Below are positions 3,442 through 38,059 of a DNA stretch of 38,059 nt, one piece after another. The stretch spans positions 1 through 38,059 of the IMG/VR virus record IMGVR_UViG_3300025653_000098, one strand, 5' to 3'. A program made the position numbers and the translations under genes. The stretch is from a virus (lineage: Duplodnaviria; Caudoviricetes). Within the stretch, counting starts at the first letter, position 1; every line of letters starts with the position of its first letter. The notes beneath the pieces are model-generated. The model made no database searches and had not been told where the DNA came from. It saw only the letters and a program-made list of their open reading frames with translations.

Positions 3442-3685
3442 TTTTTATTTAATCGTAGAAAAAATTAAGTCAGCCCCGTCAGTAGTTGGCGGGCTTGAAC
3501 TAACGGAATCACAGAATAAGGACGTTAGGTACTTAAAAGGCAAGGTGGTTAGTGTTGGCTCTGAAGTTATTGGTATTTGCGAAGACGATATAGTTTGGTA
3601 TGACAAGCACGCAGGTAACGGTATCGACATAGACAACAAGCTTTATAAAGTAATAAAGAACACCGACGTAGTTATTGTAGAATGA
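3428..3685 (+). CDS. groES: Co-chaperonin GroES (Cpn10)
   Basis: 85 aa with a mobile-loop-like GGLEL, GKVVSVG, DIVWY and IDNKLYKVIKNTDV. Overlaps the groEL end by 14 nt. Confidence 0.9.
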   Translation: MQAINFYLIVEKIKSAPSVVGGLELTESQNKDVRYLKGKVVSVGSEVIGICEDDIVWYDKHAGNGIDIDNKLYKVIKNTDVVIVE

Positions 3686-9255: not shown

Positions 9256-9457
9256 GATAAGTATAGGTAAAGAATATAAAGATAATGCGATGCATTATTC
9301 TGTTGGGCAAGAAGTTTACGGGGGACATATTATTTGCGACATCGTAGAAGAGTACGACAAGTTCTGTGTTTTTATAAAAGAAGGGGAAGATATAAAGCCT
9401 TGGAAAGATTTTAATAAAAACATGGGTATTGCTGTAGAGTATAACTTAGAATATTAA
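9239..9457 (+). CDS. Small hypothetical protein
   Basis: 72 aa, beta-rich, overlapping both neighbours. Confidence 0.75.
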   Translation: MKLIRKISIGKEYKDNAMHYSVGQEVYGGHIICDIVEEYDKFCVFIKEGEDIKPWKDFNKNMGIAVEYNLEY

Positions 9458-10074
9458 TGCACTCAATATTTGATTATATTGTTTCACCGGTAAAATCTCG
9501 ATACAACAATGAGGTTAAAGTCGGTGATAAAGAACTAATAGTTAATACAGAAATATTTAATCATCAGTTTGTAAATAGAGAGGCTACAGTACTTTCAACG
9601 CCAATAGCTACTCCTACCCCTGTAAATCCGGGAGATAAAGTTTTAATACACCATAATGTATTTAGACGTTGGCATGATGTCAGAGGAATAGAAAAAAATA
9701 GCTCTAGTTATATATCTGATGATAAATATTCTTGTACGCCTGATCAGGTTTATGCTTATAAAAAAGATGAATCTTGGCAAGCATTACCTGGTTACTGCTT
9801 TGTTAAGCCAATAAAAAACAAAGACAAGTTTGCTGCTTCAAGTGAAAACGAATTAATTGGTTTTTTATTATATGACAACAGGCAGCTAAATGAACTTGGA
9901 GTTAAAGCCGGCGACTTGGTTGGTATTGGTAAGTTTAGCCAGTTTGAGTTTATTATTAATGGTGAAAGAGTGTACAGAGCTAAGACTAATGATATTTCAG
10001 TTAAATATGAATACACGGGAGACCAGGAAGAATATAATCCAAGCTGGGCAAATAGCAGTTCAAGAGTTAATTAA
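9457..10074 (+). CDS. Tandem GroES-like domain protein
   Basis: Domain 1: DYIVSP...ATVLSTP...VNPGDKVLIHH. Domain 2: YCFVKP...GVKAGDLVGI...EFIINGERVYRAKTNDI. Confidence 0.7.
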   Translation: MHSIFDYIVSPVKSRYNNEVKVGDKELIVNTEIFNHQFVNREATVLSTPIATPTPVNPGDKVLIHHNVFRRWHDVRGIEKNSSSYISDDKYSCTPDQVYAYKKDESWQALPGYCFVKPIKNKDKFAASSENELIGFLLYDNRQLNELGVKAGDLVGIGKFSQFEFIINGERVYRAKTNDISVKYEYTGDQEEYNPSWANSSSRVN

Positions 10075-21135: not shown

Positions 21136-21465
21136 ATGGCTGAGTTAAAAAACAATTTTGCTGGGGCTAAGATTAATAAAGATGTAGACAAAAAAATCTT
21201 ACCAAAGAACGAATACAGAGAAGCCCAAAACGTATCTATACCAGAATCAAGCGAAGGTGGCGTTGGCGCCGCTGAACCAAGTTTAGGTAATGAGCTTAAC
21301 TATGAGACAGCTTTATCTTATGATGCTGGCACAGAGGTTATAGGATACTACCTAGATGAGTTAAATAATAAAGTATATTGGTTTGTTACAGACCAAACTC
21401 AGTTTAGTAGATCTACATCATTACAAGATACAACTGCTGAAATATCAGATCCACCAGCAGCTTAA
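21136..21465 (+). CDS. Tail stabilisation/muzzle protein, N-terminal fragment
   Basis: F..AKINKDVD...LPKNEYREAQN...G...GN resembles the N-terminus of crAss-like/P22 gp10-like stabilisation proteins. Confidence 0.65.
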   Translation: MAELKNNFAGAKINKDVDKKILPKNEYREAQNVSIPESSEGGVGAAEPSLGNELNYETALSYDAGTEVIGYYLDELNNKVYWFVTDQTQFSRSTSLQDTTAEISDPPAA

Positions 21466-21475
21466 TAGAATATAA

Positions 21476-24400
21476 ATGGCGGTAAATAAAATAATAATGC
21501 AGGATTTGTCCACTATGGAAGAACCTGTTGAAATAGTTAGTGGTGATTTTTTAAATTTTTCTAAAAACCATTTGATAACCGGTATAAACGTTATCGAAGA
21601 CTTATTGTTTTGGACTGACAATTACAATCAACCTAGAAAAATAAATATCAATAAAGCAATAAACGATCCTACTTATTACGACAGTGAGGATAAAATATCT
21701 GTTGCTAAAATTGCTCCTTATGCCGCGCCTTTAATTCATGAGCATCAAAACTTACATACAGTAACAACTGAAAACACATTAAAAGCTGATGCTAACGTTA
21801 ATTCTGATTATTTAAAAGAAAACTTTGTTAGGTTTTCTTATAGATACAAATATGAAGACAACGAATACTCTTTAATAGCCCCATTCACTCAAGTTGTATT
21901 TGAACCATTAAATAATGGTTGTATTATAGATGACGCAGCAGAGACAGACTTAACTTCTTCTTCAAGCGATGCTGATAAAGCTAATTACGAGTTTGGAACA
22001 AAAAAAGTAGTAGATACCGGAAAAGTTGCTATAATGCAAAACGCTATCAATAGGGTTAAGCTTAGAATACCATTACCATATAATAACGATGCTTTAACGG
22101 CGACTACACGTACTTTAACTAGTGCGATTGGATCACCAACAAGCACTAGTATAGCTCTTACGGGGCTTGCTTTACCAGATGATCACTATATAGTAAAAGG
22201 AACATTCACAAGTGCGACTGAAGCGGGAAACGCTAAGACACATGATTTAACCCAATTTATTGCTTCAGGCGTAGGTGTTAACCCTACAATAAATTTAGAT
22301 AGCGGGCAAGTATCAGGCCCAATATCATCAGAACTTGCTTTTGTTCCAATGTGGGAAAACTATGTTGGATTAAAAAGTATAGAAATATTAATAAAAGAAT
22401 CTGATGATGCGGCTGTAAGAGTTGTTGGTGAGATAGATGTACGAGACATAAGAGATTTTAAAGATAACGTAGATGTTTATCCTATTAGAGCTTGGTCAAC
22501 TATGCCAACTTACTATAGGTACTGCTACGTTTTTGATTATAAGTCAGAAAAGCCATACAAAGTAATACCAGAAGGTCAGGTCAATAGAGTTAGCGATGAT
22601 GTACCTATTAGAGCGCAAGCACAAGAGGTAGTATCTAATAGAATTGTTTACGGTAATTATTTAAAAAACTACCAATATCCAACTGATGCCGCTGGCAATA
22701 AAGGGATAAATTACATTGTTACCTCTTTAGCTAAAGGAGAAAATGAATATGATTCTACTGCATCAGAACCTAAATATTGGCTTAACTTACAGCATAATGA
22801 ATACGCTTACAGATATGGATCACTTAAACAAAGAAGAACCTATCAAGTTGGCGTAGTATTGTCTGATAGATATGGTAGGCAATCACCTGTAATATTATCT
22901 TCTGCTAAAAAGGGTAACAACGCTACGACACAAAATGATTCTCCAGACACTATAACTACCGTAAATCAAACGGGTTCGGCAGCAATTGGATATTCTCTTG
23001 GACACGATGGCAGTGCAGCTGATTTTACTTGGTCGCAATATGAGCTTGATGTTATTGGCAGAACTTTAGGTATAGAGTTTCAAGATTCATTTTTAGTTCC
23101 AGCTGATCAGTCTTATAGCAGCACTAATAATTTAGGATGGTATTCATATAGAGTTGTTGTAAAACAAACGCAACAAGACTACTATAACGTATACACGCCT
23201 CACCCAATAGCATTAGCCGACTCAACAAGCGCTTCTTCTTACATGACTTTATTTAGTGACAATATAAATAAAGTACCTAGAAGTATATTAGACCAAGATA
23301 TAAACAGAAATAACATATCAGGATCCGATGTGTTTTTATTCCCTAAAGTACAATCGCTTAATGCTGGTAGTAAAGACTCTAAATTGCAAACTAGTTACTC
23401 TTCTAAACTGATAGATGTAATAAGTCTTGGAACAATACAGGAACAAGATAGTGAGTATGATTTAACTAATTCTACCGAATCACTTCTTTCTACGTCTGGT
23501 AACGCGAGCTTAGTTTACAAAAGTGAAAGAGGCCCATTAGTAGCTGAAATTGAAAACTTAGCGACTTTTTATGGGGGTCTTACTAGCCCAACACATTTAA
23601 GAGGATTGAGTGTATTTGAAACCGAGCCATTTGATTCAAAACTAGACATATACTACGAAACATCTACAACAGGTTTAGTAACTGATTTAAACTGGGGTTT
23701 GCAGTTAGCCCCTCCAGCTAGTGCACCTGAAGAAGAATCAATAGAGTTTCAAGGAACACCAAATGTTTTAACTAAAAGCTTTATAGAAAGTAAAACTACG
23801 GGATCTTTAGGTACAGTAGTAGCAACAGCAGGAACAGGCGGTAATACTTTAGTTTATGAGTTACTAAACTTATGGAGCTATAATGGCGTTGGTAGGGACG
23901 ACTTTAAAAATAGAGTTTCATTAAATAGCAGCACCGGCGTGTTATCACTTTCCAGCGGAGTAGCTACAGGAACTGGTTTTGCTCATAGAAACTCTGATTA
24001 TGATAAATATGACGTAGTTTTAAAAGTAAGTGAGTATTCCGGTAAAGATTATACTGGGTCATCTATTAGAACATTACAGATACAAGTAACAAACGATAAT
24101 CCAAGTATTCAATTATATAATTCAAGTGGCACACTAGCTTCATCATCAAGAAGTGCTGAAGTTAACTTTTACGAAAGATTTAATGTTAAACTTGATAACG
24201 GCTACACGCATAGCGGCGCTGCTGAAAATGGTGGTACAGATAGTGTAGAAAAATACAGAGGACTTACATATGCAATAACTTTTCCTAACATAACTAATAC
24301 GCAACTACGAACTTGGGCTGAAAGATCATTTAAAGTAGAACAAAAAGCAAACGGCAAAATAGATATTAAAACAACATATGTGTGGGAGATTAACGAAAAC

Positions 24401-25039
24401 TGGAGCCAAGAACCATTAAATATTGAAACCCCTCAAGGCCAAACTAAACAAGACTTTTTTGATTTGCTTCCAGCGGAAAGAACTATGACAATTACTGTTT
24501 CAGATAATGCTTCCACCCCGTTAACAAACACAGCAACGTTGCAGATTGACGAGGCTATACCTTTGCTTAAAATGAACAGTATTTACATAGCTAATCGTGG
24601 TGAGTTAAATCCTGACGAAAAACCAGGTAGTGGACGTAAGTCTATTGAATTTAACAGAAGTGCTTTTATTGGTAGAGGAAAAATTTTACAAGAAGTAGAT
24701 ATATTAAAGCCAAGAAAAGGAAACGCTATTTATTTTGGTCGTGACGAAAAGAAAGCAAGTGAAATCACTTATGCTTTTGGAAGTAGAGATATATTTATAA
24801 TTTATAATTATACTAAGCTTGGCTATGACGGTAAACAAGCGTACTATGATATTGCGGTAGTGTCTAATGGAGTTAATTCAGTAGATTCATCATTTTTAGA
24901 TTCATACATTTTATATACAGATACAATACTTGTTGCTGATGGAGAAACAGCCGCAGAAAAAATCGTCCAATTTGGAGATGAACAGTGGCCGACTAAAGCT
25001 TTAAGCGGATCAAATAAATTGTTTAATTTTCCAACATAA
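21476..25039 (+). CDS. Tail stabilisation/muzzle protein, central part with accessory beta-sandwich domains
   Basis: FLNFS...LLFWTDNYNQPRKIN, RFSYRYKYEDNEYS, NRIVYGNY and SLKQRRTYQVGVVLSDRYGRQS. Confidence 0.72.
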   Translation: MAVNKIIMQDLSTMEEPVEIVSGDFLNFSKNHLITGINVIEDLLFWTDNYNQPRKININKAINDPTYYDSEDKISVAKIAPYAAPLIHEHQNLHTVTTENTLKADANVNSDYLKENFVRFSYRYKYEDNEYSLIAPFTQVVFEPLNNGCIIDDAAETDLTSSSSDADKANYEFGTKKVVDTGKVAIMQNAINRVKLRIPLPYNNDALTATTRTLTSAIGSPTSTSIALTGLALPDDHYIVKGTFTSATEAGNAKTHDLTQFIASGVGVNPTINLDSGQVSGPISSELAFVPMWENYVGLKSIEILIKESDDAAVRVVGEIDVRDIRDFKDNVDVYPIRAWSTMPTYYRYCYVFDYKSEKPYKVIPEGQVNRVSDDVPIRAQAQEVVSNRIVYGNYLKNYQYPTDAAGNKGINYIVTSLAKGENEYDSTASEPKYWLNLQHNEYAYRYGSLKQRRTYQVGVVLSDRYGRQSPVILSSAKKGNNATTQNDSPDTITTVNQTGSAAIGYSLGHDGSAADFTWSQYELDVIGRTLGIEFQDSFLVPADQSYSSTNNLGWYSYRVVVKQTQQDYYNVYTPHPIALADSTSASSYMTLFSDNINKVPRSILDQDINRNNISGSDVFLFPKVQSLNAGSKDSKLQTSYSSKLIDVISLGTIQEQDSEYDLTNSTESLLSTSGNASLVYKSERGPLVAEIENLATFYGGLTSPTHLRGLSVFETEPFDSKLDIYYETSTTGLVTDLNWGLQLAPPASAPEEESIEFQGTPNVLTKSFIESKTTGSLGTVVATAGTGGNTLVYELLNLWSYNGVGRDDFKNRVSLNSSTGVLSLSSGVATGTGFAHRNSDYDKYDVVLKVSEYSGKDYTGSSIRTLQIQVTNDNPSIQLYNSSGTLASSSRSAEVNFYERFNVKLDNGYTHSGAAENGGTDSVEKYRGLTYAITFPNITNTQLRTWAERSFKVEQKANGKIDIKTTYVWEINENWSQEPLNIETPQGQTKQDFFDLLPAERTMTITVSDNASTPLTNTATLQIDEAIPLLKMNSIYIANRGELNPDEKPGSGRKSIEFNRSAFIGRGKILQEVDILKPRKGNAIYFGRDEKKASEITYAFGSRDIFIIYNYTKLGYDGKQAYYDIAVVSNGVNSVDSSFLDSYILYTDTILVADGETAAEKIVQFGDEQWPTKALSGSNKLFNFPT

Positions 25040-25044
25040 TCACA

Positions 25045-26442
25045 ATGCCAGTACAATTAGAAGTAGGATATTTTAACACATTTATAGTTTCAAACTCAAC
25101 TTATGCAGCGCCAGACACTATAGACGGAACTTGGTACGTAGAAGAGTCTAGAATAAAAGGTAAATACAATGGTACTCAAGTTGATTATGGAGTAAGAGCA
25201 TATGCAACTGATGAAGAGTACGAACCAGAAAATATTAGTAATGGTTTAATCTATTCTGGTTTATATAATGAAAGAACTGGTATAAACCAAACAAATGCTT
25301 TTCCTACAGGTACTGAAATAACTAGACAGGTCGATCCTAAGTATGGATCTATACAAAAGCTGTATGCAGAGGATAACGACTTAAATATATTTCAAGAGTC
25401 AAAAGTACATCGAGCTTTAATAGATAGAGACGCTATATTCACAGCTACTGGTAACCAATTAGTTACAGCAACAAATAAAGTTATAGGTAGTATAACTTCT
25501 TATTTAGCTGATAATGGTATATCTAAAAACCCTGAAAGCCACGCTTACTACAATGGCAGACAATATTTTGTTGATAGAGATAGAGGCGCAATATTAAGAC
25601 TAAGTAGAGATGGTATAACTAAAATATCTTCTTACGGTATAAAAACCTTTACTAGAGATACTTTAAACTCAATATCCGAAGATAATGCTTTGTTTATAAG
25701 AGGTATGTATGATGAAAGAGGATCAGAGTATGTTTTGTGTATAAGTAACAGAAGTGAAACTTATAGCGACATATCTGTTGGTAGAAAAATAAACACTTCA
25801 ACTGACGAAGAAGAAGAAATGAAGTTTGTTACTATGGGCTTTTATGAAAACAATAATGGCTGGACTTCTTTATATTCTTATAAACCTCGTTTTGGGTTTA
25901 GTTATAAAAACAACTTTTTTACTTATAACGAATATAACTTATACCAACACTATAGCGAGAACGTGCCAAGGTGTAACTTCTATGGTGAAGGTAACGATCC
26001 ATCATATATTCAGTTAATAATAAACGACGGGCCATCACAAGTCAAAAACTTTTTAAATGTAAACTACGAAGGCTCACAAGGATGGAGAGCTGTGAATATA
26101 CAATGTGAAAGCCACGGCGTTGCTAACGATTCAGTTAGTCAATACGAAGATGTAAAAGAACTTGCCTATGATATACCACCCTATGGAACAACTGACTTTG
26201 ATGAAAACGGTGTAGCAATAAATATAGGGTTTAAAAAGCAAGAAGGAGAGTTTAATGCTGGTATAATAGCTAAAAATAATAACTTTTACCACGATGATGA
26301 ATACGCTCATACTAGTGGATTAAAAGGGCATTATTTAGACTTAACTTTGTTAACTAGAAATACTACAGGATTAAATGCATCGGAAGAAGGGCCAATATCA
26401 CTTTTTACTGTATCTTCGGAGGCTAAAATTTCTTCTACATGA
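25045..26442 (+). CDS. Tail stabilisation/muzzle protein, C-terminal part
   Basis: YGSIQKL, GISKNPES, YFVD..RGAILRLSRDGITKIS and GWTS.YSYKP beta-propeller-like motifs. Confidence 0.72.
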   Translation: MPVQLEVGYFNTFIVSNSTYAAPDTIDGTWYVEESRIKGKYNGTQVDYGVRAYATDEEYEPENISNGLIYSGLYNERTGINQTNAFPTGTEITRQVDPKYGSIQKLYAEDNDLNIFQESKVHRALIDRDAIFTATGNQLVTATNKVIGSITSYLADNGISKNPESHAYYNGRQYFVDRDRGAILRLSRDGITKISSYGIKTFTRDTLNSISEDNALFIRGMYDERGSEYVLCISNRSETYSDISVGRKINTSTDEEEEMKFVTMGFYENNNGWTSLYSYKPRFGFSYKNNFFTYNEYNLYQHYSENVPRCNFYGEGNDPSYIQLIINDGPSQVKNFLNVNYEGSQGWRAVNIQCESHGVANDSVSQYEDVKELAYDIPPYGTTDFDENGVAINIGFKKQEGEFNAGIIAKNNNFYHDDEYAHTSGLKGHYLDLTLLTRNTTGLNASEEGPISLFTVSSEAKISST

Positions 26443-27038
26443 CAGAGCAGGATATTAACGAGCAAATATTAAATTCACCTTTAACAAAAGAGCAGGCTAA
26501 AGAACAATGGATTAGTGCCACTAAAGACATGGATCTAAAGCACACCTTTACTTTTGATGAAATGTGGGACACTGCTGCTGAGCTAAGAAAAAAGAAAGAG
26601 TTCAGAGATCAAATTACTTTAGCACACGAAGCGTTAGAAAAAAACGAAAACGCAATGAAAGGTGAAGAGCTACATGCTTACAACCCTGTAAAGCATACGT
26701 TTACAGATAATTGTTATGTTAGAGAAATATTTAATCCAGCGGGCCAATTAATTGTAACTAAGATACATAAAAAAGAACATCCATTTTTCTTAATGAAAGG
26801 AAAAATGTCAATACTAACCGAAGATGGAGTTGTGGAATTAGAGGCACCTCATCACGGTATAACAAAACCTGGCACTAAAAGAATAATTTATACACACACA
26901 GATTGTGTATTTATTACAGTACACGGAACAGATAAAAAAACACCAGAGGAAGTTGAAGAAGAGGTTATTGCTAAAAACTTCGACGACCCTGTAATATCAA
27001 TAGAAGAGATTAATTTATTAAAAAGTAATAAATCATGA
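26439..27038 (+). CDS. Cupin-like (double-stranded beta-helix) protein
   Basis: HTFTDNCYVREIFNPAG..IVTKIHKKEHPFFLMKG...KPGTKR...FITVH. Confidence 0.65.
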   Translation: MTEQDINEQILNSPLTKEQAKEQWISATKDMDLKHTFTFDEMWDTAAELRKKKEFRDQITLAHEALEKNENAMKGEELHAYNPVKHTFTDNCYVREIFNPAGQLIVTKIHKKEHPFFLMKGKMSILTEDGVVELEAPHHGITKPGTKRIIYTHTDCVFITVHGTDKKTPEEVEEEVIAKNFDDPVISIEEINLLKSNKS

Positions 27039-27712
27039 GTTTTATAGCGGGATCATTACTAATAGCAGGCGGAATAGCAGTTGCAGGTGGAGCGACAACA
27101 GCTATTATGGCCGGCTCACAAGCAAAAAAGTCAAGACGATCAGCTGAAAGATTAGAACGTGAATTAAAGACACTTGAAGCGGGTAGACAAGAGATTATTG
27201 ACCCGTCGTTGCAGGTACAAGATTTAAGTGCGCAAATCACAAACCCATACGCTAATTTACAGGTGGCAACTCAAGCCGCTGAAATGCAGGCAACGCAGTC
27301 AGATATTGCTTTAGCAAATACACTTGACCAGCTTAGAGCCACAGGTGCTGGTGCTGGCGGCGCAACTGCTCTTGCTAGGGCTGCGGCACAAAGTAAACAA
27401 GAAATATCGGCTAGCATTGAAGCACAAGAAGCAGCTAATGCTAAGTTGAGGGCTGAGGGCGAAGCACAAAGGCAACAAAGAGTTTTATCTGAACAGCAAA
27501 GAGTTCAACAAGCCAGATCGGCTGGACAAGAGTTTATGTTTGCCACTAGAGAAGGTAGAGAACTCCAGCAACTAGAAAGAACCGCTGCACTTGGTCAACA
27601 GGAAAGAATGTTGCAGCAACAGTATAGACAACAAATGATGGGTGCTATTAGTGGTACAGCTAGTTCGTTAGGATCTATGGGTGCTGGATATGCTGCAGCT
27701 ACTGCTGGATAA
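27035..27712 (+). CDS. Internal virion/ejection (pilot-like) protein
   Basis: G/A-rich hydrophobic N- and C-termini around a Q/A/E coiled coil. Confidence 0.65.
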   Translation: MSFIAGSLLIAGGIAVAGGATTAIMAGSQAKKSRRSAERLERELKTLEAGRQEIIDPSLQVQDLSAQITNPYANLQVATQAAEMQATQSDIALANTLDQLRATGAGAGGATALARAAAQSKQEISASIEAQEAANAKLRAEGEAQRQQRVLSEQQRVQQARSAGQEFMFATREGRELQQLERTAALGQQERMLQQQYRQQMMGAISGTASSLGSMGAGYAAATAG

Positions 27713-27737
27713 TAATAAAAAAAAATAAAATAAGACA

Positions 27738-29102
27738 ATGGGAGCTTACACTAATCCAAAACTATACGGGCTAGACTTTAGCGTTATCACTGAAAATACT
27801 TCAGCGGCAGCGGCTAAAATTGCGTATGCTACAGCTAAGCAACAAGAGGAAAGAGCAAAGCGCGAAAAAGAGTTTAAGGATTCATACAAAGACTTTATCA
27901 GTAAGGCTTATCTTGATGCTAACGATTACTTAGGAGAAGAGTACAGAAACTCACTTAACGATTCTCTTCAAGACATTGAAAACTTCGCTAGCATGTCGGA
28001 GGCTGACAAACAAAACGCTATTAGAAACGTACAGGCTACTAATGCTGGTATGAGTGAGATTGCTACTAAAATGTCCGAGATTGCTACTATGGACATCGAC
28101 ATTGACAAATATGACGACCCATCTGTTAGATTATTAGGAGCAATGGCAAGAGGCGATAGGAATGCTTTTAAATCTGTTAAAGATCCAAATAACCCTATGG
28201 TTATTAATTGGCAGTATACAGAGAAAGACCCTGATACAGGGGAGTCTAAAACCTATGATATTTCAATGAAAGACCTTAGAATGAGTATGGGTTCTGTTCA
28301 AGATATATCTCCACGTATCGATGCTATCGATAATGAACTATCTGCCTTGGCTGGGCAGTACCAAAAGAATATTAACTCGTTCGCAACTAGAGGTGTTAGA
28401 TTTGATTGGGAAAGTAAGTTTTCAGAGTACTTTAAGGGCATGGATGAAGAAGAGCTTGACTTATACTATAGAAACGCTTTTCCGGACATTAGAGGAGTCG
28501 ATTACACTCCAAACATTAATCCTGCAACCAATAAACCTTGGGGTGATTCAGATGAAGAACAAGCAGAAAGAGAAAGGTTATATAACGAAAAGCGACAAGA
28601 CTTAGAGGCTAGGTTAAAACAAAAGATAACTGGATTGTTAGCTGATACACCTTTAGCTATGACAGAACGAGAAAAATTAGCTGCGTCTGAAGCCCGCGCT
28701 AGAAGAACGGCACTGTACAAGCAAAGTTTGAAAAATCTTGAAAAAACAAAAGATTTTGATCAAGATTTATTTGATACTATTTCAGGAATAGCGGATGAAA
28801 TTAAAGCGTTTCCTGGGTATTCTACAAAACAAGCAATAGATCCTCTTGATTCTCGAGCTCGTTTTTTAAAGGGGAAGCAAATCAAGATTCAAGGAAAAGA
28901 TAAAACTATAACAGATTCTTATATTAAAAATGGGCAACTTGTCGTTGAGTATAAAGAATTTAGTAAGGGCGGTACAACAAGACAAACTCAATCATTTAGT
29001 CTTGACAGACCCGATGATTTATATTTGGCAATAACAACTGCGCAGGGCGTGTTACAAAAACCTAGTCAATCAACATCAACATCTAAGCCATCAGCATATT
29101 AA
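27738..29102 (+). CDS. Probable internal virion/ejection protein
   Basis: 454 aa, helical, between the pilot-like gene and the giant ORF. Confidence 0.6.
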   Translation: MGAYTNPKLYGLDFSVITENTSAAAAKIAYATAKQQEERAKREKEFKDSYKDFISKAYLDANDYLGEEYRNSLNDSLQDIENFASMSEADKQNAIRNVQATNAGMSEIATKMSEIATMDIDIDKYDDPSVRLLGAMARGDRNAFKSVKDPNNPMVINWQYTEKDPDTGESKTYDISMKDLRMSMGSVQDISPRIDAIDNELSALAGQYQKNINSFATRGVRFDWESKFSEYFKGMDEEELDLYYRNAFPDIRGVDYTPNINPATNKPWGDSDEEQAERERLYNEKRQDLEARLKQKITGLLADTPLAMTEREKLAASEARARRTALYKQSLKNLEKTKDFDQDLFDTISGIADEIKAFPGYSTKQAIDPLDSRARFLKGKQIKIQGKDKTITDSYIKNGQLVVEYKEFSKGGTTRQTQSFSLDRPDDLYLAITTAQGVLQKPSQSTSTSKPSAY

Positions 29103-29112
29103 AAATAATATA

Positions 29113-32100
29113 ATGAACGAAGAAGTTTTACGAAAACTGTATAATAACGGCTCTCAATATTTTAGTCTTCCAGATTTTGAAACTTTCAAAACTGACATGC
29201 AAGATGAGAACAAATTAACCAAATTTAGGGAATCAATGTCTGAGTATTTCAGCATACCAGATATTGAAACATTCAAATCTGATATTGGTTTTAATCCGGG
29301 AAAGCAAGAAGGTGTCCAGACTGTGGCTGCGACTGCGGCGCCTGTTACACCAGAAGAGCCTCAGCAGCCTACCACATTTCAGCAGCCTTCTCCATTATTA
29401 GAGCAAGAGTTACCAATTGGTGTAGCATCTTTAGGCCAAATTAAATCACAAGAAGCTCCTAAAGAAGAAGTAAAAGATCAGAAAGTAGACCCAATAGTTA
29501 AGTCATACGCGGATAAAATAAAATCAATTAGTGAGGCTGGGTTAACACAAGAACAACTTAATGAAATTGAAAGGCAAATAGAAGAGCCAAAGCTTACTAG
29601 TAAATTAGTTAAATCATTTGGAGATTTTAAAACGGTTACAGAAGAAAAATATGCTTACGAAGATTATTTAGACGAAGCTAAAAAATTATACGCTGATCAA
29701 GAAGATGTTAATATATCTGCGGTAACCGATGATCAGGCTATACCAGTTGCAAAAGATTTACTTCGGTCTGAATTAAAAAACCAGATTACAAACGAACAAA
29801 GAAAGCAAGTTCTTGACGATTTTGAGGATGAGTATTCAGAAGGTTTTGTCGACAATTTAAAGAAAACTGGATTTGGCATTGCTAGATTAACCAATTTTGG
29901 TTTAATGGCAACAGCTGGAGAAATAGGCCTTAAAAAAGTAATTGAGTCAGACGTGTTGCCAGAAGGAATATCTGAAGAATATGTGACTCCGGTAAAAGAT
30001 TTTTTTGCATCAGTAAATGAAGCACTTACATCGAAAGAAGATTTAGAATACGAACAAGGTAGAAAAGAATTAAAAGAATTAATAGCTCAAGCATCGGAAG
30101 ATAAAAAGACGTTAGCTGAAAACAAAAGAAAAGACATAGACGTTGATGTTTTAGCTTTTGACGACAACGTTGAAAAAGCTGAAGAATTAAAAAAACAAAT
30201 AAACGTAATAGACAATAAATTCAAGCTTGGTGAAAAATTAAGTGAAGAAGAAATAAATGCTTATAACTCTACAGTTCAAGAATTTAATGGGCTAGCAAAA
30301 GATATTAATTATCTAGGCAATAAAATAAATAAACAAGCTGAAGAACTTAACGATATAAACGTGTCAAGTTCAGATTTAGAAAAAGCAGTTGAACAAGCTG
30401 GTAAATCTTACAATGCTCTTGATGTAACCGTTTCTAGAGTTGTTGGTTCTGGTTTGCAATTAACATCTGGCGTTGTAAATTTATTTGATGATTTTTTGTC
30501 AATAACGCCAACCGGTGTAATGATTAATGCTATCTCTGATGAGCTGGATTTACCATCTATTACATCTTCAGTATTAAATGACACGGAAAAAACTTCTTTA
30601 ATAGAATCTTTTGCAGATAAATTAAAAGAAATAGATAAAGAAGAGTTTACCGGAAAGGTAAGGGAAACTCAAGATTATAGAACAGCTTTTAAGAGCGGCG
30701 ATAATTTTTTAGACTTTGCATTAGATGTTGTTAGTGGGCAATCTATTAATACAGCTATTACCGCTGCTACTGGCGGTGTTGGCTTAGCGATACTTGGTGG
30801 AGCGGCTTATGGTAATAAAGTCGATGAATTAGAAGATAGAATACAAGGCAAAGGTGACTATGCTTTAAAGGGCCCAGAAGACATACCTCTGTGGAAATAT
30901 TATACAACCGGCTTAATAGTAGGTGGTGCGGAAGCTGGTTCTGAATACGTTGGTTTAAGGCAAGTTAGGGCTTTAAACAAAAGCATAGGAATAGTAGCTA
31001 AAGCAAGCCCAGGCAATAGAGCGTGGTATGATTTATCAACAAAAAAATGGTCAAGAAAATTTGCTGAAAATGTAGTACAAAACGCTTGGCAACCAATTGA
31101 AGAAGGTGGTTCTGAGGCTATTGCACAAATAGCCCAAAATGCTGCGGATGTATATATTCTTGGCGATGATAAAAACATACTTGAAGGCGTAGACGAAGCT
31201 TTTATAACTGGAGCGACATTTAGTGGTTTAGCAATGTCTGCACCTAAAACTTTTGTCGATGCTTCTGTTGCATTTAGAAGTTCAGATGTAGATATCCAAA
31301 TTAACAAAAGAACCAAAAAACTAGGCGAACTAGCCTTACGAAAGCAAGAGATAAATAATAAAGAAAATAAAACACAAGAAGACCTAGATCTATTAAAAGA
31401 AATAACTGCAGAGCAGGAGATTCTAATACAGGAAAATTACAATGAAGTTAAAAACGTAGTTACACTTCTTGATGAATTAAACTTTGGTCAAAAACAAGCT
31501 TTAATAAAAAACGAAACAAAAAGAGCGAGTTTAATAAGAAAAGCTAAAGATATATCAGAGTCTAAAGATTTAACTAAAGATCAGAAAGAAAGCCAAATAA
31601 AAGAACTTGAAACACAGTTTAAGGATTTAAAAAATAAAAGGGATTTAATGCTATCAAGGTACAATTTTGATAGACAATCACAAATCTCACATTTATACAA
31701 CACTGTTAGGGCAAACGAAACGGGTAAAGAAATAAAAATAATTGATGCGGAAAATATTGAAGATGCGGAGGTTCAGTTTAATTCTGCTTTAGATCAAGCA
31801 TTTATTGATGACATTATTACACAAGAGCAATATTATAAATCCAAAAAAGAATTTGCAGAGTTAAAAAAGGAGTTAAAAAAAGGAAACGTTAGTGTTTCAG
31901 GTCAAGCAATAAACGCCGATAATAATTTTCCGTTTGTTCTAACATTAAGAAATGAAGCGGTTGATCCAAATAATGGAGATTCTTTTGTTCATGGGCATGA
32001 GTTTCTTCACGCCTCATTTTTTAATAAAATAAGGGCTCTTGGTGGCGATGTTGTTAAAATAAGTGACTTACTATATAATCACTATAAAAACAATTACATA

Positions 32101-35100
32101 ACAGACAAAAAACAATTACGCCAATTTGAAAATGATTATAAAAAATTAAAACGAAAAGGTACAAAAGAATCTGAATCTCTTTGGCATGAAGAAAGAATTA
32201 TAGCTATAACAAAAATGATTGCACTTGCTGAACGATCTGGTAAGTTAGATAAATCATTTTTAGCTAAAATTAAATCTGCTTATAATGGATTGTTTACAAA
32301 CCCAGTAGAAAAAACAGAGGCGGGTAAATTAAAATCCGGAGAAGATGTGTTTAATATGTTTCTTACATATGGCACTAGATTTATGTCTGGTGATGTCAAA
32401 GAACTTGTTAAGTTAGAAAAAGGCCTTGATATAGACGCTTCTTTAACTGGAGAAAAAATAGAAGTTGGATCGAGATTTTCAAGAAAAGAATTGGGTGATT
32501 CAATTAAAGCATTAGTACCAGAAGGAACAACAAAAGCTGAGTATGATTCAGAAGTTATTGGCACGGTATATCTTGATTTAATTCTTGGTAATAAACTACA
32601 TCCATTAATAAACAAAAACCTTGCTAGATTTGGTGTTCCAAAAGAACAAGTTACAGATGAGTTTTATGAAGATGTAAAAAGTCAATTATTTGAACGCTCA
32701 TTACAAAGATTTAATCCAGAAAAGAATGATGATCTTGGAGGCTTTGTGATAGATGAGTTACAGAGGTTTGCGATACCAGACATTGTTAACCAATATAAAA
32801 GCCAAGGCAGATTCCAAACAACTGAACAAGTTGAAGCGGTTCCAACTGAAGGTAGGGTTAGACCAATGCAAATTGCTGAAGAAACAACTACTGAAGACGT
32901 AGTTGAAAGAGCTGAAGAGCAAGAGTTTAAGGTACAAGATAAGACGTTTAGAGAAAAGCTTGGCATTGAAAAGGGAAGCGACCTTTATAACAGCGTGATT
33001 GATTCAGTGAGAAGAACGTTTGGCACTAAACTACCTCCGGTAACCAATAAGAAGTTTAGAAGAACTCTAATAGATCGTTTTAGAAGGGAACTAATGAAGC
33101 CAGTGAAAGATTTTATTGGCAAAGGGGAGAAGTATAAAGACTTTGTTTTCAACAACTCTGAACTTATACTTCAAAAAATACCTACTAGAGAGCTTGTAAG
33201 GTTAGAGCGTCGAGAAGAAAATAAAATATTTGCTGAGATTGTATCTGAAAATTCTAGCCCAAAACAAGTTGATGATGCGGTTTCAAAGGGTTTATACCTA
33301 CTTCCTGGAGCGTCAAGGGATTCTAGTCCTACTATTTACAGGAAGATAGAAACAACACCCGAACAACTATGGAATTTTCTAACGGGTAATTCAAATGACA
33401 TTAACTCAGCTCGTAAAACAGCACTATCTGAGCGCTTAGCTCAAGAACTAGCTCTTGACGCTACCATGATGGTGTTGAAGGATCCAGAATTCAATCTAAT
33501 TGCTAAAGTGGAAGAGGTGTCTGTAATGATGGGTGAGCCGTTTCCTAAAAACTATGACGCTGAGTTGGGGGCAACTATAGAGCGCGACCCATCCGATACT
33601 AGGTTCTCTAAAAGAGACAAATCATGGGAAGACTCTGCGAAAAGTTCTTTACCTAATTCTGGAATAAAAGATGTAGATGCCTTTATAAACAAGATCAAAA
33701 GAGGTAAGTGGGGAATGCTTACCGGAGAGAACCCAGACTCGATACAAGCAACGAATGAAGAAAACATATCTTACAACAAAAAAGCTGTAGATTGGTTTAA
33801 TGAAAAGAATGAACAAAGAGCAAAATACAAACTTCCAGAATATAAGTTAATACCAATATTTGGTAAGTATGGCTCCCCAGAAAATTCGTTTTTTGTTGAA
33901 GGATTAGAAAGAGATGATGCAGCTGAGTTTGCAAGAGATCTTAAACAAGAAAGTGTCGCCACTAATGAAGGCTTGGTGTATAAAGACGGTACAATAAACC
34001 TAATAAAAAAGGGACTTGAAAAGTTTAATACTAAGGCTGACGACTACTATTCCGTAATAAACATAGACGGAAGTAATCTTGAGTTTCAAATAGAGTATGA
34101 CTTAGATAATTTAAGTCTTTCTCTACCAACAGATGTTCAGAACAAACTTATTGATGATGGTGATGGTAATTATGAGTTTTATCATTACTCTTTTGAAAGA
34201 AGAGATGTGTTAAAGCCATCATCTGGAGACATGGCAAGGAGCTTAACCAGTAGAGAAGAGGCTAATGCATTATCCTCTGTTGGTGGGGCTGTGATGTTTT
34301 ACACAGATAGGGACACAAAAGAGCCTGGTGTTGGAGATGAGTTACACGTTGTCAAAATAAAAAAGGAGAAGGTGTATCACTTTCAGTCTGATGTAGCTGG
34401 GTTTTACGAGAAAGCTAAAAAACTTTTTAACGAAAAAAGACCTGGGCAGGCATTCAGTCCAAACTATCAAGCTGCATGGATATCTAAAGTTATGAAGGAT
34501 GCTGGTTATGAAATGTTGGTTACAAACTGGAATCGAGGCAGATTAAGGGCTCAAACAAACATTGAGGTGACTCCGGAGTCAGGTGTGACCAGGTTTTCTA
34601 AAAAAGAAAAAGTAGATTCAAAGTCAAAAGAGTCTATTAAGAAACTAATAAACAAAGTTTCTAGATTAACTGATAATGATAAAGCTAGAGAAATAGTTGC
34701 TAAAGAATTAAGACAACTTTTAAAAGACTCTGAACTAAGTCTGTTTTCAAAAAGAACTATAAACAAGGTTATTACAAGCCTAAAGAACACTAATGTCAGT
34801 AACATGCAGAAGATGTTGGACAAGGTGGACGACGCAATATCCAATGACGAGGGAAGAGTAGAGAGAATTAAGAGATACAAAGACAGAAGTAGAGCAATAA
34901 AAAGAATTGCCAAGATAGGCCAGTTAAAAGAACTTCAAGAATCATTTGTTAGAGTTATGGGTATAGACCCAAAGTATCTTTCTAAGAAAACGCAAAAGGA
35001 ATACGATAGTATTTTGAGTGACATACTAAACATAAACAAAAAGTATGACAAAACATCTAGGGACGCATTTAAGGCTAAGATAGATCTTGTTTTAGACTCT

Positions 35101-38059
35101 TATGAGCTTGATTCCTTAAGAGCTAAAGAGATTGCAGACAGAATAAATGAACTAATAGACCCTACTAAAACGTTAAATACAAACCTCGCAAAGCTTGAAA
35201 AAGATAAAAAGATAACCAAGGAAGAGAGAGAGCTTATTACTAGGTTTAAGTCTTTGTTGGATGAGTCATCAGTTGAAGACCCTATGGATGGGTACACCAA
35301 GGAAGACACTAAATTGGTATCAAAGGTGATGCGTGATAATAAGAAGCGAGAGGGTATAGAACAAGATTTTATAGCAATACTAAATCAAATACAGTCAGCG
35401 TTTTATAGTAACTATGACGATGGTGCTTTTAAACTATCGGAACTAGAAAGAAGGTATGTTCGAGAAGCAAGCTCCATAACCCTAGAGGACATACAAGGGC
35501 TTAGTTTAAGAGACGCCGAGTCAATTGTTAGGGCTTTAGAGGCTATGAAGGCTGGGTTCTTAACACCTGAGTTATTTCAAGGTATTATAAAGGTTCGTGG
35601 GGTTAGGGGGAACATGTCTATCCCATTGACCGAAATAAAACAGACTGGAGTCGTAGATAAAGCAATTAGCAAGGCTGCCGCAGGAATTATTAATTTACTA
35701 AACTCTTCAAGTAGAAAAGCCAAGAAAACGGGTATAGGTGATAGACTTCGTTCTGCCCCAACAAAAAACTATGACCAAATATTAAAGGCTGAGAAAGAAT
35801 TATTCTCAGATGGTTCAAAAAGATTTAAATCAACTAATATTTACAAGTCTTTGTTTAGACCAACCTCTATGGCGTTTTCCGCATCAGAACAAACCCTTAA
35901 AAGAATTGAGGACAAGCTTAAAAACGCCACAGCACTTTTGTCAAGAAATCAAAACAAAAGATTTATACAGAAGGCTAAGATAATGGTGTTCCAGATTCAA
36001 AGGGAATACGATAGCAACTTAGGGAACAAGGAGGTTAATCAAGCTAAGGATTGGATTAACGCAACTATCAAAGATAAAGACACGGAATATAATGAATATG
36101 AAATCAAGGAACTAGAGAAGATAAGGGATGGGTATCTCACTGAGGGGCAAGTAGACGCTAAGAAGCTATACGATAGCCTTACTGCAAACGAAAAGAAGCA
36201 TCTTCAAATGATAGATGAAGTGTATGAACAATTAACCTCTATGGCTAGAATGGATGCCGCTGTACAGGGTATGCCGTTTATACATCGGGAAAATTATATT
36301 CACTTACCTAAATCGGGAACAGCAACAACTGAAATATCTAACGATTTTGAAGGCCTCTTTGATTCGTTCATGAACGCCTCTGTAAAGAATAAAGCTGCAA
36401 TACAGCGTACTGGTAAAACTCACTCAATATCTTTCGACCCTGTAAGTAATGCATACGCAGCGGCAAGAAAGATTTCTGTTGGCTACCATATGTACCCAGT
36501 TATAAAATCCACCAGAGTGGCTTTTTCTGGACTAAAAAGCAGAGCAGAAACAAATTTTCAAAAAGATTTGGTTAATGAGTTAGAGTCAATATATGACACT
36601 ATTATAAACAGCCAGTACAAGATTGTGACAAAGAAAAAAGGGTTTGGTGATAATGTTGTTAATTACCTAACTAGGGCTGGATACTACTCTCAATTAAGTG
36701 GTTTAGTAAAGGCTGCCTCTGAGCTTGGTACAAACACGATACACGCTGTAATGAATCACGCTGGTAGCCTTGTTGACGGGTACGGCATACTTGTTGGTGT
36801 AGACGCCAAAACTATAGAAAAGGCTATTGAGAACACCAACACCACTCAGACGGATAGGTTGACTAAAACGGCTAAATTTGACAATAAGGACATGGAGGGT
36901 AAGCTGCTATCAAAAGCAAAGCTTTTCAACCCTGAGCAAATGACTGAAGAACTTGCCGCATCTGCAAAAACAGTTGGTAAGGTTATTGCGATGCCATTTC
37001 GAGCTGTGTTCAAACTCAATGAGTCACTTATAACCAAACCCGATGAGATGGTTATTAGACCTCTATTTGTTGGTGAGTTTCAGAACAGGTTTAAACAACT
37101 TACAGGTCAAAAATTAAACTGGGAAAAACTAGCTAACGATGAGTCATATAGAGATAGGTTTCAAGAAGCTATAAACCAAGCCTCTGAACAAGCAGACGCT
37201 GCGATTATAGATACATCGGCATCCACAAATCCATTTGACACAATACCAAGCAATATATCTGATCCAGACGTAAGTGCAATAATAAGAGCAGGACAGGTAG
37301 TAAATAGGTACATGACAAACTTTAGAGTTTTTGAATACTACTCAGCAGTAAAGGGTGTGCAAAACTTATTGGGCAAGGGAGAGATTTCTAGAGGTGCTGG
37401 CGCAATGCTTTTAGCGTCCACAATAATGCGTATGTCAATTTACAGACTAGGTATAGACTATGCCTTCGGATTGATTTTCTCTGCGCTTGGCATGGGCGAA
37501 GATGAAGACGAGATTAAGAAAGAAGACTTAACGAGAAGTGTGCTATCAGGTATAGTTACATTAGCGTTTGGTAGAAATTTAGGTAACATCAGTCAAACGG
37601 TTGTTAACTTGGGTATAGAGTACGCTAACATGGAGTTTGGAGAGGGTATAACTTGGGACTCAGTGACAAAAGATGGTGAGAAAACTGAGTATGACCCATA
37701 CAAAGACAGTATGGTTTTTTCTAAAATACCTGTAAAACGAAGTCCTGGAAGAGATTTGTTTACAGATTTTCTTATTAGTTCTGCAGGCCCGCTAACCCCA
37801 ACAATTAAATCAGTGAGGAGAGCAATCACACTAACTGACAGATCTATTAATAATAGCAGAAAAGAGTCTAGAGATAAAAATAAGAATGAATTGTTTTTCA
37901 AAACACCGTTTGATATTGCCGGTTCTATTGGGCTTATACCAAACTACAAAGACCTTAAAAAGTTAAACGATAGATACTGGTTTGGTGATTCCAGTAAAAA
38001 ATCTAAAAATAAAAGCTATGTGCCGTTTGAAGAACAAGATGTTTTTGAACCCCCACTTT
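29113..38059 (+). CDS. Giant polyvalent internal virion protein (at least 2982 aa, 3' truncated by the window)
   Basis: Manual translation from ATG 29113 (MNEEVLRKLY...) finds no stop to the window end. It contains G/A hydrophobic stretches, EEGGSE, HEFLH, and sigma-2-like, SAM-lyase-like and ART-like segments. Confidence 0.9.
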   Translation, partial: MNEEVLRKLYNNGSQYFSLPDFETFKTDMQDENKLTKFRESMSEYFSIPDIETFKSDIGFNPGKQEGVQTVAATAAPVTPEEPQQPTTFQQPSPLLEQELPIGVASLGQIKSQEAPKEEVKDQKVDPIVKSYADKIKSISEAGLTQEQLNEIERQIEEPKLTSKLVKSFGDFKTVTEEKYAYEDYLDEAKKLYADQEDVNISAVTDDQAIPVAKDLLRSELKNQITNEQRKQVLDDFEDEYSEGFVDNLKKTGFGIARLTNFGLMATAGEIGLKKVIESDVLPEGISEEYVTPVKDFFASVNEALTSKEDLEYEQGRKELKELIAQASEDKKTLAENKRKDIDVDVLAFDDNVEKAEELKKQINVIDNKFKLGEKLSEEEINAYNSTVQEFNGLAKDINYLGNKINKQAEELNDINVSSSDLEKAVEQAGKSYNALDVTVSRVVGSGLQLTSGVVNLFDDFLSITPTGVMINAISDELDLPSITSSVLNDTEKTSLIESFADKLKEIDKEEFTGKVRETQDYRTAFKSGDNFLDFALDVVSGQSINTAITAATGGVGLAILGGAAYGNKVDELEDRIQGKGDYALKGPEDIPLWKYYTTGLIVGGAEAGSEYVGLRQVRALNKSIGIVAKASPGNRAWYDLSTKKWSRKFAENVVQNAWQPIEEGGSEAIAQIAQNAADVYILGDDKNILEGVDEAFITGATFSGLAMSAPKTFVDASVAFRSSDVDIQINKRTKKLGELALRKQEINNKENKTQEDLDLLKEITAEQEILIQENYNEVKNVVTLLDELNFGQKQALIKNETKRASLIRKAKDISESKDLTKDQKESQIKELETQFKDLKNKRDLMLSRYNFDRQSQISHLYNTVRANETGKEIKIIDAENIEDAEVQFNSALDQAFIDDIITQEQYYKSKKEFAELKKELKKGNVSVSGQAINADNNFPFVLTLRNEAVDPNNGDSFVHGHEFLHASFFNKIRALGGDVVKISDLLYNHYKNNYITDKKQLRQFENDYKKLKRKGTKESESLWHEERIIAITKMIALAERSGKLDKSFLAKIKSAYNGLFTNPVEKTEAGKLKSGEDVFNMFLTYGTRFMSGDVKELVKLEKGLDIDASLTGEKIEVGSRFSRKELGDSIKALVPEGTTKAEYDSEVIGTVYLDLILGNKLHPLINKNLARFGVPKEQVTDEFYEDVKSQLFERSLQRFNPEKNDDLGGFVIDELQRFAIPDIVNQYKSQGRFQTTEQVEAVPTEGRVRPMQIAEETTTEDVVERAEEQEFKVQDKTFREKLGIEKGSDLYNSVIDSVRRTFGTKLPPVTNKKFRRTLIDRFRRELMKPVKDFIGKGEKYKDFVFNNSELILQKIPTRELVRLERREENKIFAEIVSENSSPKQVDDAVSKGLYLLPGASRDSSPTIYRKIETTPEQLWNFLTGNSNDINSARKTALSERLAQELALDATMMVLKDPEFNLIAKVEEVSVMMGEPFPKNYDAELGATIERDPSDTRFSKRDKSWEDSAKSSLPNSGIKDVDAFINKIKRGKWGMLTGENPDSIQATNEENISYNKKAVDWFNEKNEQRAKYKLPEYKLIPIFGKYGSPENSFFVEGLERDDAAEFARDLKQESVATNEGLVYKDGTINLIKKGLEKFNTKADDYYSVINIDGSNLEFQIEYDLDNLSLSLPTDVQNKLIDDGDGNYEFYHYSFERRDVLKPSSGDMARSLTSREEANALSSVGGAVMFYTDRDTKEPGVGDELHVVKIKKEKVYHFQSDVAGFYEKAKKLFNEKRPGQAFSPNYQAAWISKVMKDAGYEMLVTNWNRGRLRAQTNIEVTPESGVTRFSKKEKVDSKSKESIKKLINKVSRLTDNDKAREIVAKELRQLLKDSELSLFSKRTINKVITSLKNTNVSNMQKMLDKVDDAISNDEGRVERIKRYKDRSRAIKRIAKIGQLKELQESFVRVMGIDPKYLSKKTQKEYDSILSDILNINKKYDKTSRDAFKAKIDLVLDSYELDSLRAKEIADRINELIDPTKTLNTNLAKLEKDKKITKEERELITRFKSLLDESSVEDPMDGYTKEDTKLVSKVMRDNKKREGIEQDFIAILNQIQSAFYSNYDDGAFKLSELERRYVREASSITLEDIQGLSLRDAESIVRALEAMKAGFLTPELFQGIIKVRGVRGNMSIPLTEIKQTGVVDKAISKAAAGIINLLNSSSRKAKKTGIGDRLRSAPTKNYDQILKAEKELFSDGSKRFKSTNIYKSLFRPTSMAFSASEQTLKRIEDKLKNATALLSRNQNKRFIQKAKIMVFQIQREYDSNLGNKEVNQAKDWINATIKDKDTEYNEYEIKELEKIRDGYLTEGQVDAKKLYDSLTANEKKHLQMIDEVYEQLTSMARMDAAVQGMPFIHRENYIHLPKSGTATTEISNDFEGLFDSFMNASVKNKAAIQRTGKTHSISFDPVSNAYAAARKISVGYHMYPVIKSTRVAFSGLKSRAETNFQKDLVNELESIYDTIINSQYKIVTKKKGFGDNVVNYLTRAGYYSQLSGLVKAASELGTNTIHAVMNHAGSLVDGYGILVGVDAKTIEKAIENTNTTQTDRLTKTAKFDNKDMEGKLLSKAKLFNPEQMTEELAASAKTVGKVIAMPFRAVFKLNESLITKPDEMVIRPLFVGEFQNRFKQLTGQKLNWEKLANDESYRDRFQEAINQASEQADAAIIDTSASTNPFDTIPSNISDPDVSAIIRAGQVVNRYMTNFRVFEYYSAVKGVQNLLGKGEISRGAGAMLLASTIMRMSIYRLGIDYAFGLIFSALGMGEDEDEIKKEDLTRSVLSGIVTLAFGRNLGNISQTVVNLGIEYANMEFGEGITWDSVTKDGEKTEYDPYKDSMVFSKIPVKRSPGRDLFTDFLISSAGPLTPTIKSVRRAITLTDRSINNSRKESRDKNKNELFFKTPFDIAGSIGLIPNYKDLKKLNDRYWFGDSSKKSKNKSYVPFEEQDVFEPPL
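29298..29372 (+). other. Candidate -1 programmed ribosomal frameshift signal
   Basis: In-phase G GGA AAG (29298-29304), then stem AGGTGTC/GGCGCCT (29310-16/29337-43). Loop GGCTGC is complementary to GCAGCC at 29364-69. Confidence 0.5.

Follow-up and report, generated by a model that had tools for sequence, protein, structure and literature searches.

We analysed a 38,059-nt stretch of phage DNA, referred to here as the window, in which the early region of the genome is absent. Comparisons of its terminase and portal proteins identify the phage as an Elemovirus-like podophage; each of these two proteins matched 87 records (68 Flavobacterium Elemo, 15 Cellulophaga, 2 Tenacibaculum, 1 Maribacter and 1 uncultured), and the host is probably a member of the Flavobacteriaceae. 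The DNA of the window was found mostly in freshwater metagenomes. Contigs of the RNA run X18 cover 6 of 30 bins of the window and are uninformative on expression. The features discussed below are collected in Table 1. A structural protein of PHROG 14478, encoded at 21136-26442, is broken into three successive ORFs (109, 1187 and 465 aa); phi40:1 has one gene of 1324 aa for it, and Elemo apparently also has a single one.

Table 1. Features of the window (positions in the 38,059-nt stretch; aa, residues of the giant protein unless a gene length is given).
Feature	Position	Strand	Remarks
GroEL, GroES and second GroES-like gene	1870-3685 and 9457-10074		Before terminase, as in Elemo
Upstream gene pair (225 and 454 aa)	27035..29102	+	With giant gene, form a small-medium-giant triplet
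Giant virion-type protein	29113..38058	+	2982 aa in window, open at window end; last gene of structural block
N-terminal scaffold (aa 340-860)	30130..31692	+	Homologous to phi40:1 gp101, phi19:3 gp129, Elemo gp21
R-F-S linker motif before two-module cassette	33601..33609	+	Also at aa 1121 (32473) and 1827 (34591)
Predicted SAM-lyase-fold domain (aa 1520-1666)	33670..34110	+	Comprises DUF3293 core (aa 1536-1615) and the C-terminal strands that close the barrel
First strand and beginning of helix, W-G-M-L-T-G-E-N-P ... N1551	33709..33765	+	Homologue alignment; W1533 at 33709
G1584-K-Y1586-G-S-P-E1590-N-S1592 hairpin	33862..33888	+	G1584-K-Y1586 at 33862-33870, E1590 at 33880
Q1612-E-S1614	33946..33954	+	Equivalent of T3 Q94-D95 and Svi3-3 Q104-E105-S106
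Mobile module, predicted ADP-ribosyltransferase (ART) fold (aa 1667-1832)	34111..34608	+	Structure model
C-terminal scaffold	35827..38016	+	PHROG 32588 (family of unknown function); weak similarity to Elemo gp21

The giant gene runs off the end of the window, and a database copy of its product (P0002; 2989 aa, 99.9% identical) supplies the seven missing residues. A relative that is 91% identical (P0003) carries the same domain fusion, and one unbroken contig of run X4, possibly the sample from which the window derives, covers positions 32512-36500 with a single difference. The presence of the fusion in both of these proteins and in a single contig indicates that it is not an assembly artefact. 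A small, a medium and a giant gene in succession make up the ejection-protein gene layout of podophages, as in T7 gp14-16. The window has this order at the end of its structural block, with genes of 225 aa and 454 aa ahead of the giant one, and the order is repeated in phi40:1, whose gp99-101 are annotated from MS/MS of virions. A profile seeded with the N-terminal parts of the window and Elemo proteins, and built without phi40:1, detected phi40:1 gp101 at 112 bits, phi19:3 gp129 at 93 bits and Panino at 41, the best reversed decoy scoring 4; the giant protein of MW202828 gave no match to this N-terminal scaffold profile. Because its homologue gp101 is annotated as a virion protein from MS/MS, the giant protein is itself, by homology, likely to be packaged in the virion. 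By analogy of gene order and size, the protein may also be ejected into the host, and its lyase-fold domain may become exposed to the cytoplasm. The idea that PHROG 32588 is the family of phi40:1 gp101 proved wrong; the connection to gp101 runs instead through the N-terminal scaffold. Separately, an R-F-S-[RK] motif (32473, 33601 and 34591) repeats at the module boundaries of the giant protein and is a possible linker or processing site.

The initial annotation had placed a domain resembling the T3 SAM lyase (SAMase) and DUF3293 at 33709..34101, inside the giant protein, on the basis of short motifs. All of these motifs, including LTGENP, N1551, GLVYKDG and YYSVI, are in frame within the ORF that occupies 29113..38058 and continues beyond, and a domain does lie where it was proposed, although the folded unit is slightly bigger, spanning 33670-34110. 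The DUF3293 identity also stood, as the Pfam model (PF11697) matches aa 1536-1615. It does so over its full length (model positions 1-73 of 73), with 27.4-27.8 bits on the excised domain against a cut-off of 25, and with 21.3 bits, under that cut-off, in the full-length giant protein. Likewise, the T3 SAMase motifs given in the initial annotation are present in the actual sequence of T3 gp0.3. A profile-level comparison of the domain with T3 gp0.3 (hhalign) was insignificant (probability 4-5%, E 0.009-0.01) and put the hairpin out of register; the Pfam model of the T3 family, PF23780, does not match the window domain; and neither phmmer with the domain nor a search with profile A1 turned up any relative among PDB sequences. 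Among relatives, PF23780 matches 6/44, 2/13 and 4/19 at E<=0.001, always under its cut-off of 28 (best 27.6 bits), and ESM Atlas clusters mix DUF3293 and PF23780 at 0.91-0.92. Since direct sequence methods fall short, the link of the domain to T3 rests on its fold, on this Pfam bridging and on conserved residues. PHROGs hold no family for the domain. A 10-residue insertion at 33811-33840, present in only 1-2 of 158 homologues, lengthens helix 1 of the domain.

An AlphaFold2 model of the domain made from 44 sequences (pLDDT 97.2, pTM 0.90) contains eight strands of three or more residues and one short strand. As the initial annotation anticipated, Foldseek placed SAM lyases at each of ranks 1-6, the best being T3 8bb1_E (probability 1.00, TM 0.59) at E 0.022, with no match reaching E 0.001. 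Alignment to the same T3 chain with VIA-align gave a Z of 12.1 over 126 residues (rmsd 3.0), as compared with Z 6.2 over 87 residues for Svi3-3, Z 5.5 over 87 residues for a SAM-AMP lyase and Z 5.7 for the first unrelated row. In a wide structure search of 48,161 chains a single row had Z>=8, namely T3 7ock_L (Z 10.8). Sequence identity between the domain and T3 SAMase is 13-14%. The range of the model that could be aligned extends from residue 4 to 146 with T3, but only from 13 to 109 with the trimeric Svi3-3; the strands after residue 109, which have no counterpart in the trimeric enzymes, are retained by all but one of the 159 rows of the alignment.

The predicted model is, like T3 SAMase, a single-chain nine-stranded barrel with two outer helices. 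T3 SAMase itself is a nine-stranded barrel that is monomeric on MetK and dimeric when free (10.1101/2023.02.27.530186; PMC8406200), and Svi3-3 (PMC7877911) and the SAM-AMP lyase (PMC12255297) are trimers with shared active sites. The premise that the characterised enzymes work as trimers was therefore mistaken for T3 SAMase, and applies only to the latter two. Because the domain is of the single-chain T3 barrel type, the release or multimerisation that had been considered necessary for activity is probably not needed. Indeed, a self-contained active site, as the model suggests, is likely to be the reason why the domain can sit within a chain of ~3000 residues. Tandem triplication as a means of building a trimer is ruled out, given that 157/158 proteins have a single copy of the domain and 1/158 has two.

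The characterised enzymes share different parts of this picture. T3 gp0.3 (PF23780; 8bb1, 7ock) resembles the domain in its whole-domain barrel fold, in the order of its motifs and in the G-x-Y, E and Q-[ED] residues, but is a stand-alone early protein of 152 aa. Svi3-3 (6zm9) has the G-x-Y, E-x-S and Q-E-S motifs and a ferredoxin-like core, but is an obligate trimer with inter-subunit active sites and without the strands that close the barrel; it too was obtained as a cloned piece of an ORF, of unspecified size (PMC7877911). The SAM-AMP lyase and AcrIIIB4 (9gab, 9gad) share the core fold with catalytic E and Q, but are trimeric, have a long T-loop, are specific for SAM-AMP and are weaker structural matches (Z 5.2-5.5).

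Database searches found 306 representatives of the domain at E<=0.001, and we aligned 158 homologues, of which 150 were among those listed and the remainder came from further search matches. G1584, E1590 and Q1612 are the only columns that are invariant in 158/158, although choosing these homologues for their resemblance to the query inflates the apparent conservation; the conserved catalytic-type E and Q expected from the initial annotation are thus both present. Position 1586 is Y in 149/158 and F in 8, S1592 is found in 155 and S1614 in 146, and position 1613 is E in 99/158 and D in 37. Also conserved are N1540 (156/158), P1541 (154/158) and N1551 (157/158). In Svi3-3, the three strictly conserved residues are Gly56, Glu69 and Gln104, and the ligand is surrounded by Tyr58, Ser71, Glu105 and Ser106 (Guo 2021; PMC7877911), while the T3 gp0.3 counterparts are G55-C-Y57, E68 and Q94-D95. 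From sequence, we infer that the hairpin G1584..S1592 corresponds to G55-C-Y57..E68 of T3 and to G56-x-Y58..E69-x-S71 of Svi3-3; the probable equivalence of E1590 and T3 E68 follows from motif order, hhalign having left this pair unaligned.

The hairpin differs in length from those of the known enzymes. The spacing from G to E is 6-7 residues in 158/159 rows, versus 13 in T3 and Svi3-3, such that the lid loop is 7 residues shorter and cut to a tight turn. Because the lid hairpin that is shortened here encloses the ligand in Svi3-3, the substrate of the domain may differ. In addition, T3 SAMase binds MetK through an N-terminal tail and the beta4-beta5 loop (T4, N9, Q103, T104 and H105); the hhalign alignment has a 6-residue deletion in the domain at this loop, and the domain, lying inside a longer chain, offers no free tail. 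The domain is under purifying selection, with a dN/dS of 0.04-0.07 in the three closest non-identical pairs among 18 sequences; the window's own sequence lay too far from the others to enter this tabulation.

The domain occurs predominantly in very large proteins: 137/158 carriers are at least 1000 aa long and 103/158 at least 2000 aa, with 10/158 under 400 aa. The 103 carriers of at least 2000 aa form 27 clusters when compared over the last 700 residues, and some may be partial. A six-sequence alignment located the domain at 18 viral loci, in an ORF of at least 1300 aa in 17/18 (the exception being L025), and the same large structural gene lies upstream in 12/18. Single-protein scans of viral contigs gave no match to the domain, and a narrow search of prokaryote genomes with the same six-sequence pattern yielded nine candidates, none of them a relative. 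In a phage collection, 69 records matched, 68 of them Elemo and one a Myxococcus phage. Of five named relatives, Elemo alone has the domain, which is thus optional cargo, patchily present. Several sets of close relatives (L017/L018, L019/L021 and L012/L013/L014) swap whole segments of the giant protein and retain the lyase domain.

The module that adjoins the lyase domain was modelled at a pLDDT of 88.8, and its best match was 6kyf, an anti-CRISPR protein (Z 8.3, Foldseek probability 1.00, E 0.0012) that we take to be AcrIF11, an ADP-ribosyltransferase. The next matches were toxins of the RES, ParT and MbcT types and one chain from the pre-ejectosome of cyanophage A4. Conserved residues of the module are H1691, Y1730, E1737, W1806 and R1812; ADP-ribosyltransferases usually have a glutamate in the final strand, and this glutamate is not evident here. 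The module is present in 62/158 carriers, where it may precede or follow the lyase domain at variable distance, and absent from 96/158. Other domains found in relatives are LPD23 (2/13), a methyltransferase (1/13), LPD38 (3/19), LPD37 with InPase (1/19) and ART-PolyVal (3/19), and in one relative (P0009) a SAM-dependent methyltransferase domain lies in the same chain as the lyase domain. With its predicted SAM-lyase and ART folds, the window protein would have two unrelated enzyme domains within one large protein of the late block, and because unrelated cargo domains vary among the relatives, the carriers belong to the polyvalent proteins as Iyer 2017 defined them. In the cyanophage A4 pre-ejectosome, residues 1418-1609 of 9k3a_B have an ART-like fold (Z 5.4), and the main text of the corresponding paper makes no mention of 'ribosyl'.

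Phage polyvalent proteins are giant late-block proteins with unrelated enzyme domains (Iyer 2017, PMC5512222), and the main text of that study contains no occurrence of 'lyase', 'hydrolase' or 'DUF'. The nearest named counterpart of the window protein is Elemo gp21 (YP_010108907.1), a syntenic giant of 3694 aa that carries both modules at 38% and 49% identity, but 635 aa apart, with the lyase-fold domain at aa ~1308-1448; its record reads 'Structural protein; DUF3293', with no function given. Counter-defence within an ejection protein has been described for Gp15 of ICP3, which acts against CBASS (bioRxiv 2025.07.23.666291), but Gp15 is a stoichiometric inhibitor of CapV rather than an enzyme acting on a metabolite; its anti-CBASS activity provides a precedent for the strategy. 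No virion-borne SAM lyase was found in the titles and abstracts of the literature matches listed for phage SAM lyases, polyvalent proteins and ejection proteins, or in passages of PMC12839542, PMC9503650, PMC12783734 and PMC12002296, and we found no paper that names the family DUF3293. With a putative SAM lyase inside a giant virion-type protein, the window protein combines two known kinds of element; our analyses confirm that the domain itself is real.

Our preferred reading, to which we give a probability of roughly 0.45, is that the domain is a T3-type SAM-lyase barrel, carried as optional cargo by a giant protein that is likely packaged and ejected, and that it cleaves SAM and so likely weakens host defences ahead of phage expression. 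In this tentative scheme, the giant protein would be made late, enter the virion and reach the host by ejection. There the domain would cleave SAM into homoserine lactone and methylthioadenosine (MTA); E1590 and Q1612 would hold SAM by its methionine end, and Y1586 would face the sulfonium. SAM-dependent defences (type I restriction or BREX) would thereby be weakened before any phage gene is expressed, an incomplete effect that would help most where the host is small, grows slowly and has little SAM. The known phage SAM lyases need transcription and translation after entry, leaving the incoming DNA exposed in the meantime; a virion-delivered version, if this reading is correct, would protect the DNA during this interval by means of an enzyme whose target is a host cofactor. 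DUF3293 would gain a candidate and testable function, and the polyvalent-protein repertoire a domain. Indeed, the domain is amenable to testing because a cultured phage-host pair carries it, namely Elemo on Flavobacterium sp. BAL314.

The number of injected copies sets limits on such a mechanism. With assumed values of 4-12 copies, 50-200 uM SAM and 0.3-1 fL, and with resynthesis ignored, one turnover of the SAM pool would take an estimated 1.3-50 min at 10/s and 0.1-5 min at 100/s; the rate of Svi3-3 is 9.5/s (PMC7877911). Local depletion of SAM near the entry site is ruled out, because diffusion would supply an estimated ~7e5 SAM/s. T3 makes ~10,000 copies of its SAMase, which also inhibits MetK, and over-expressed Svi3-3 or ORF1 did not overcome BREX (10.1101/2023.02.27.530186). 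In view of the turnover estimate, of the copy number and MetK inhibition of T3, and of these BREX failures, a few injected copies would be kinetically marginal for draining SAM, with bulk depletion plausible mainly in small, slow cells. These marginal kinetics leave action on a scarce substrate such as SAM-AMP, late action, and a transfer or sensing role as candidates.

It is possible, though unlikely, that the domain retains the fold and chemistry of a SAM lyase and that its substrate is a scarce SAM derivative, for example the type III CRISPR messenger SAM-AMP, in which case it would be an injected anti-CRISPR. A scarce signal would suit a few injected copies; the T-loop of Svi3-3 would clash with the AMP of SAM-AMP (PMC12255297), and this loop is a tight turn in the family of the window domain; SAM-AMP signalling occurs in Bacteroides, of the host phylum, and AcrIIIB4 provides a known phage SAM-AMP lyase (10.1101/2025.04.28.651013). 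The best fold match of the adjacent module is also an anti-CRISPR protein. However, the fold of the domain is far nearer to T3 SAMase (Z 12.1) than to the SAM-AMP lyase (Z 5.5), and the SAM-AMP lyases described so far are trimeric and have long T-loops. The domain, with its 306 representatives, is also widespread, yet only a minority of type III systems use SAM-AMP. A broader version, which we consider similarly improbable, is that hundreds of aquatic podophages inject a cassette in which a short-lid barrel that destroys SAM-derived signals (SAM-AMP) is fused to an ADP-ribosyltransferase of anti-CRISPR type; in that case DUF3293 would represent a large and so far unrecognised family of lyases that attack immune cofactors before phage genes are transcribed.

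Quite unlikely, in our judgement, is that the domain is a SAM lyase that acts late, when giant proteins newly synthesised in hundreds to thousands of copies would reduce SAM ahead of packaging; progeny DNA would then stay unmethylated, or SAM-dependent defences of the late phase would be blunted, and virion packaging would be incidental. Late action would remove the copy-number problem and would accord with the position of the giant gene in the late block, and T3 SAMase keeps T3 DNA unmethylated (PMC8406200); but a separate small gene would be simpler, and the enrichment of the domain in giant virion-type proteins, beside polyvalent cargo, favours delivery. We consider it more doubtful still that SAM is bound and put to another use, either aminocarboxypropyl transfer to a host target or a sensor function that gates the ART-like module. 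The open pocket, the additional conserved residues N1540-P1541 and N1551, the PII-like fold, and the co-occurrence of the ART-like module in 62 proteins and of a methyltransferase in one are compatible with such a role, but all characterised members are lyases, and the position, distance and frequent absence of the ART-like module argue against it. Very improbable is that the domain is a structural passenger without catalytic relevance, or that it remains in the periplasm or the virion, since, even though 4/5 named relatives are without it, its G, E and Q are invariant, its dN/dS is low and its identity to Elemo is 38%, as against 21-25% for the scaffold.

The lyase-fold theme may be wider than the subfamily to which the window domain belongs, and Elemo ORF44 may be a second, stand-alone SAM-lyase-fold gene. 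This 113-aa gene of the early region (L007:17418-17759, minus strand) has F-x-G-x-x-E-P and Q-E-S motifs, and gave no Pfam match and no PDB sequence match; a 113-aa Elemo protein, matched to ORF44 by length only, stands at BFVD rank 38 (probability 0.89). Remoter fold matches lie inside other large phage proteins at BFVD ranks 2, 9, 14, 16, 34, 37, 43, 45, 47 and 50, and include RelA/SpoT- and LPD-labelled proteins and a protein of cyanophage P-TIM40.
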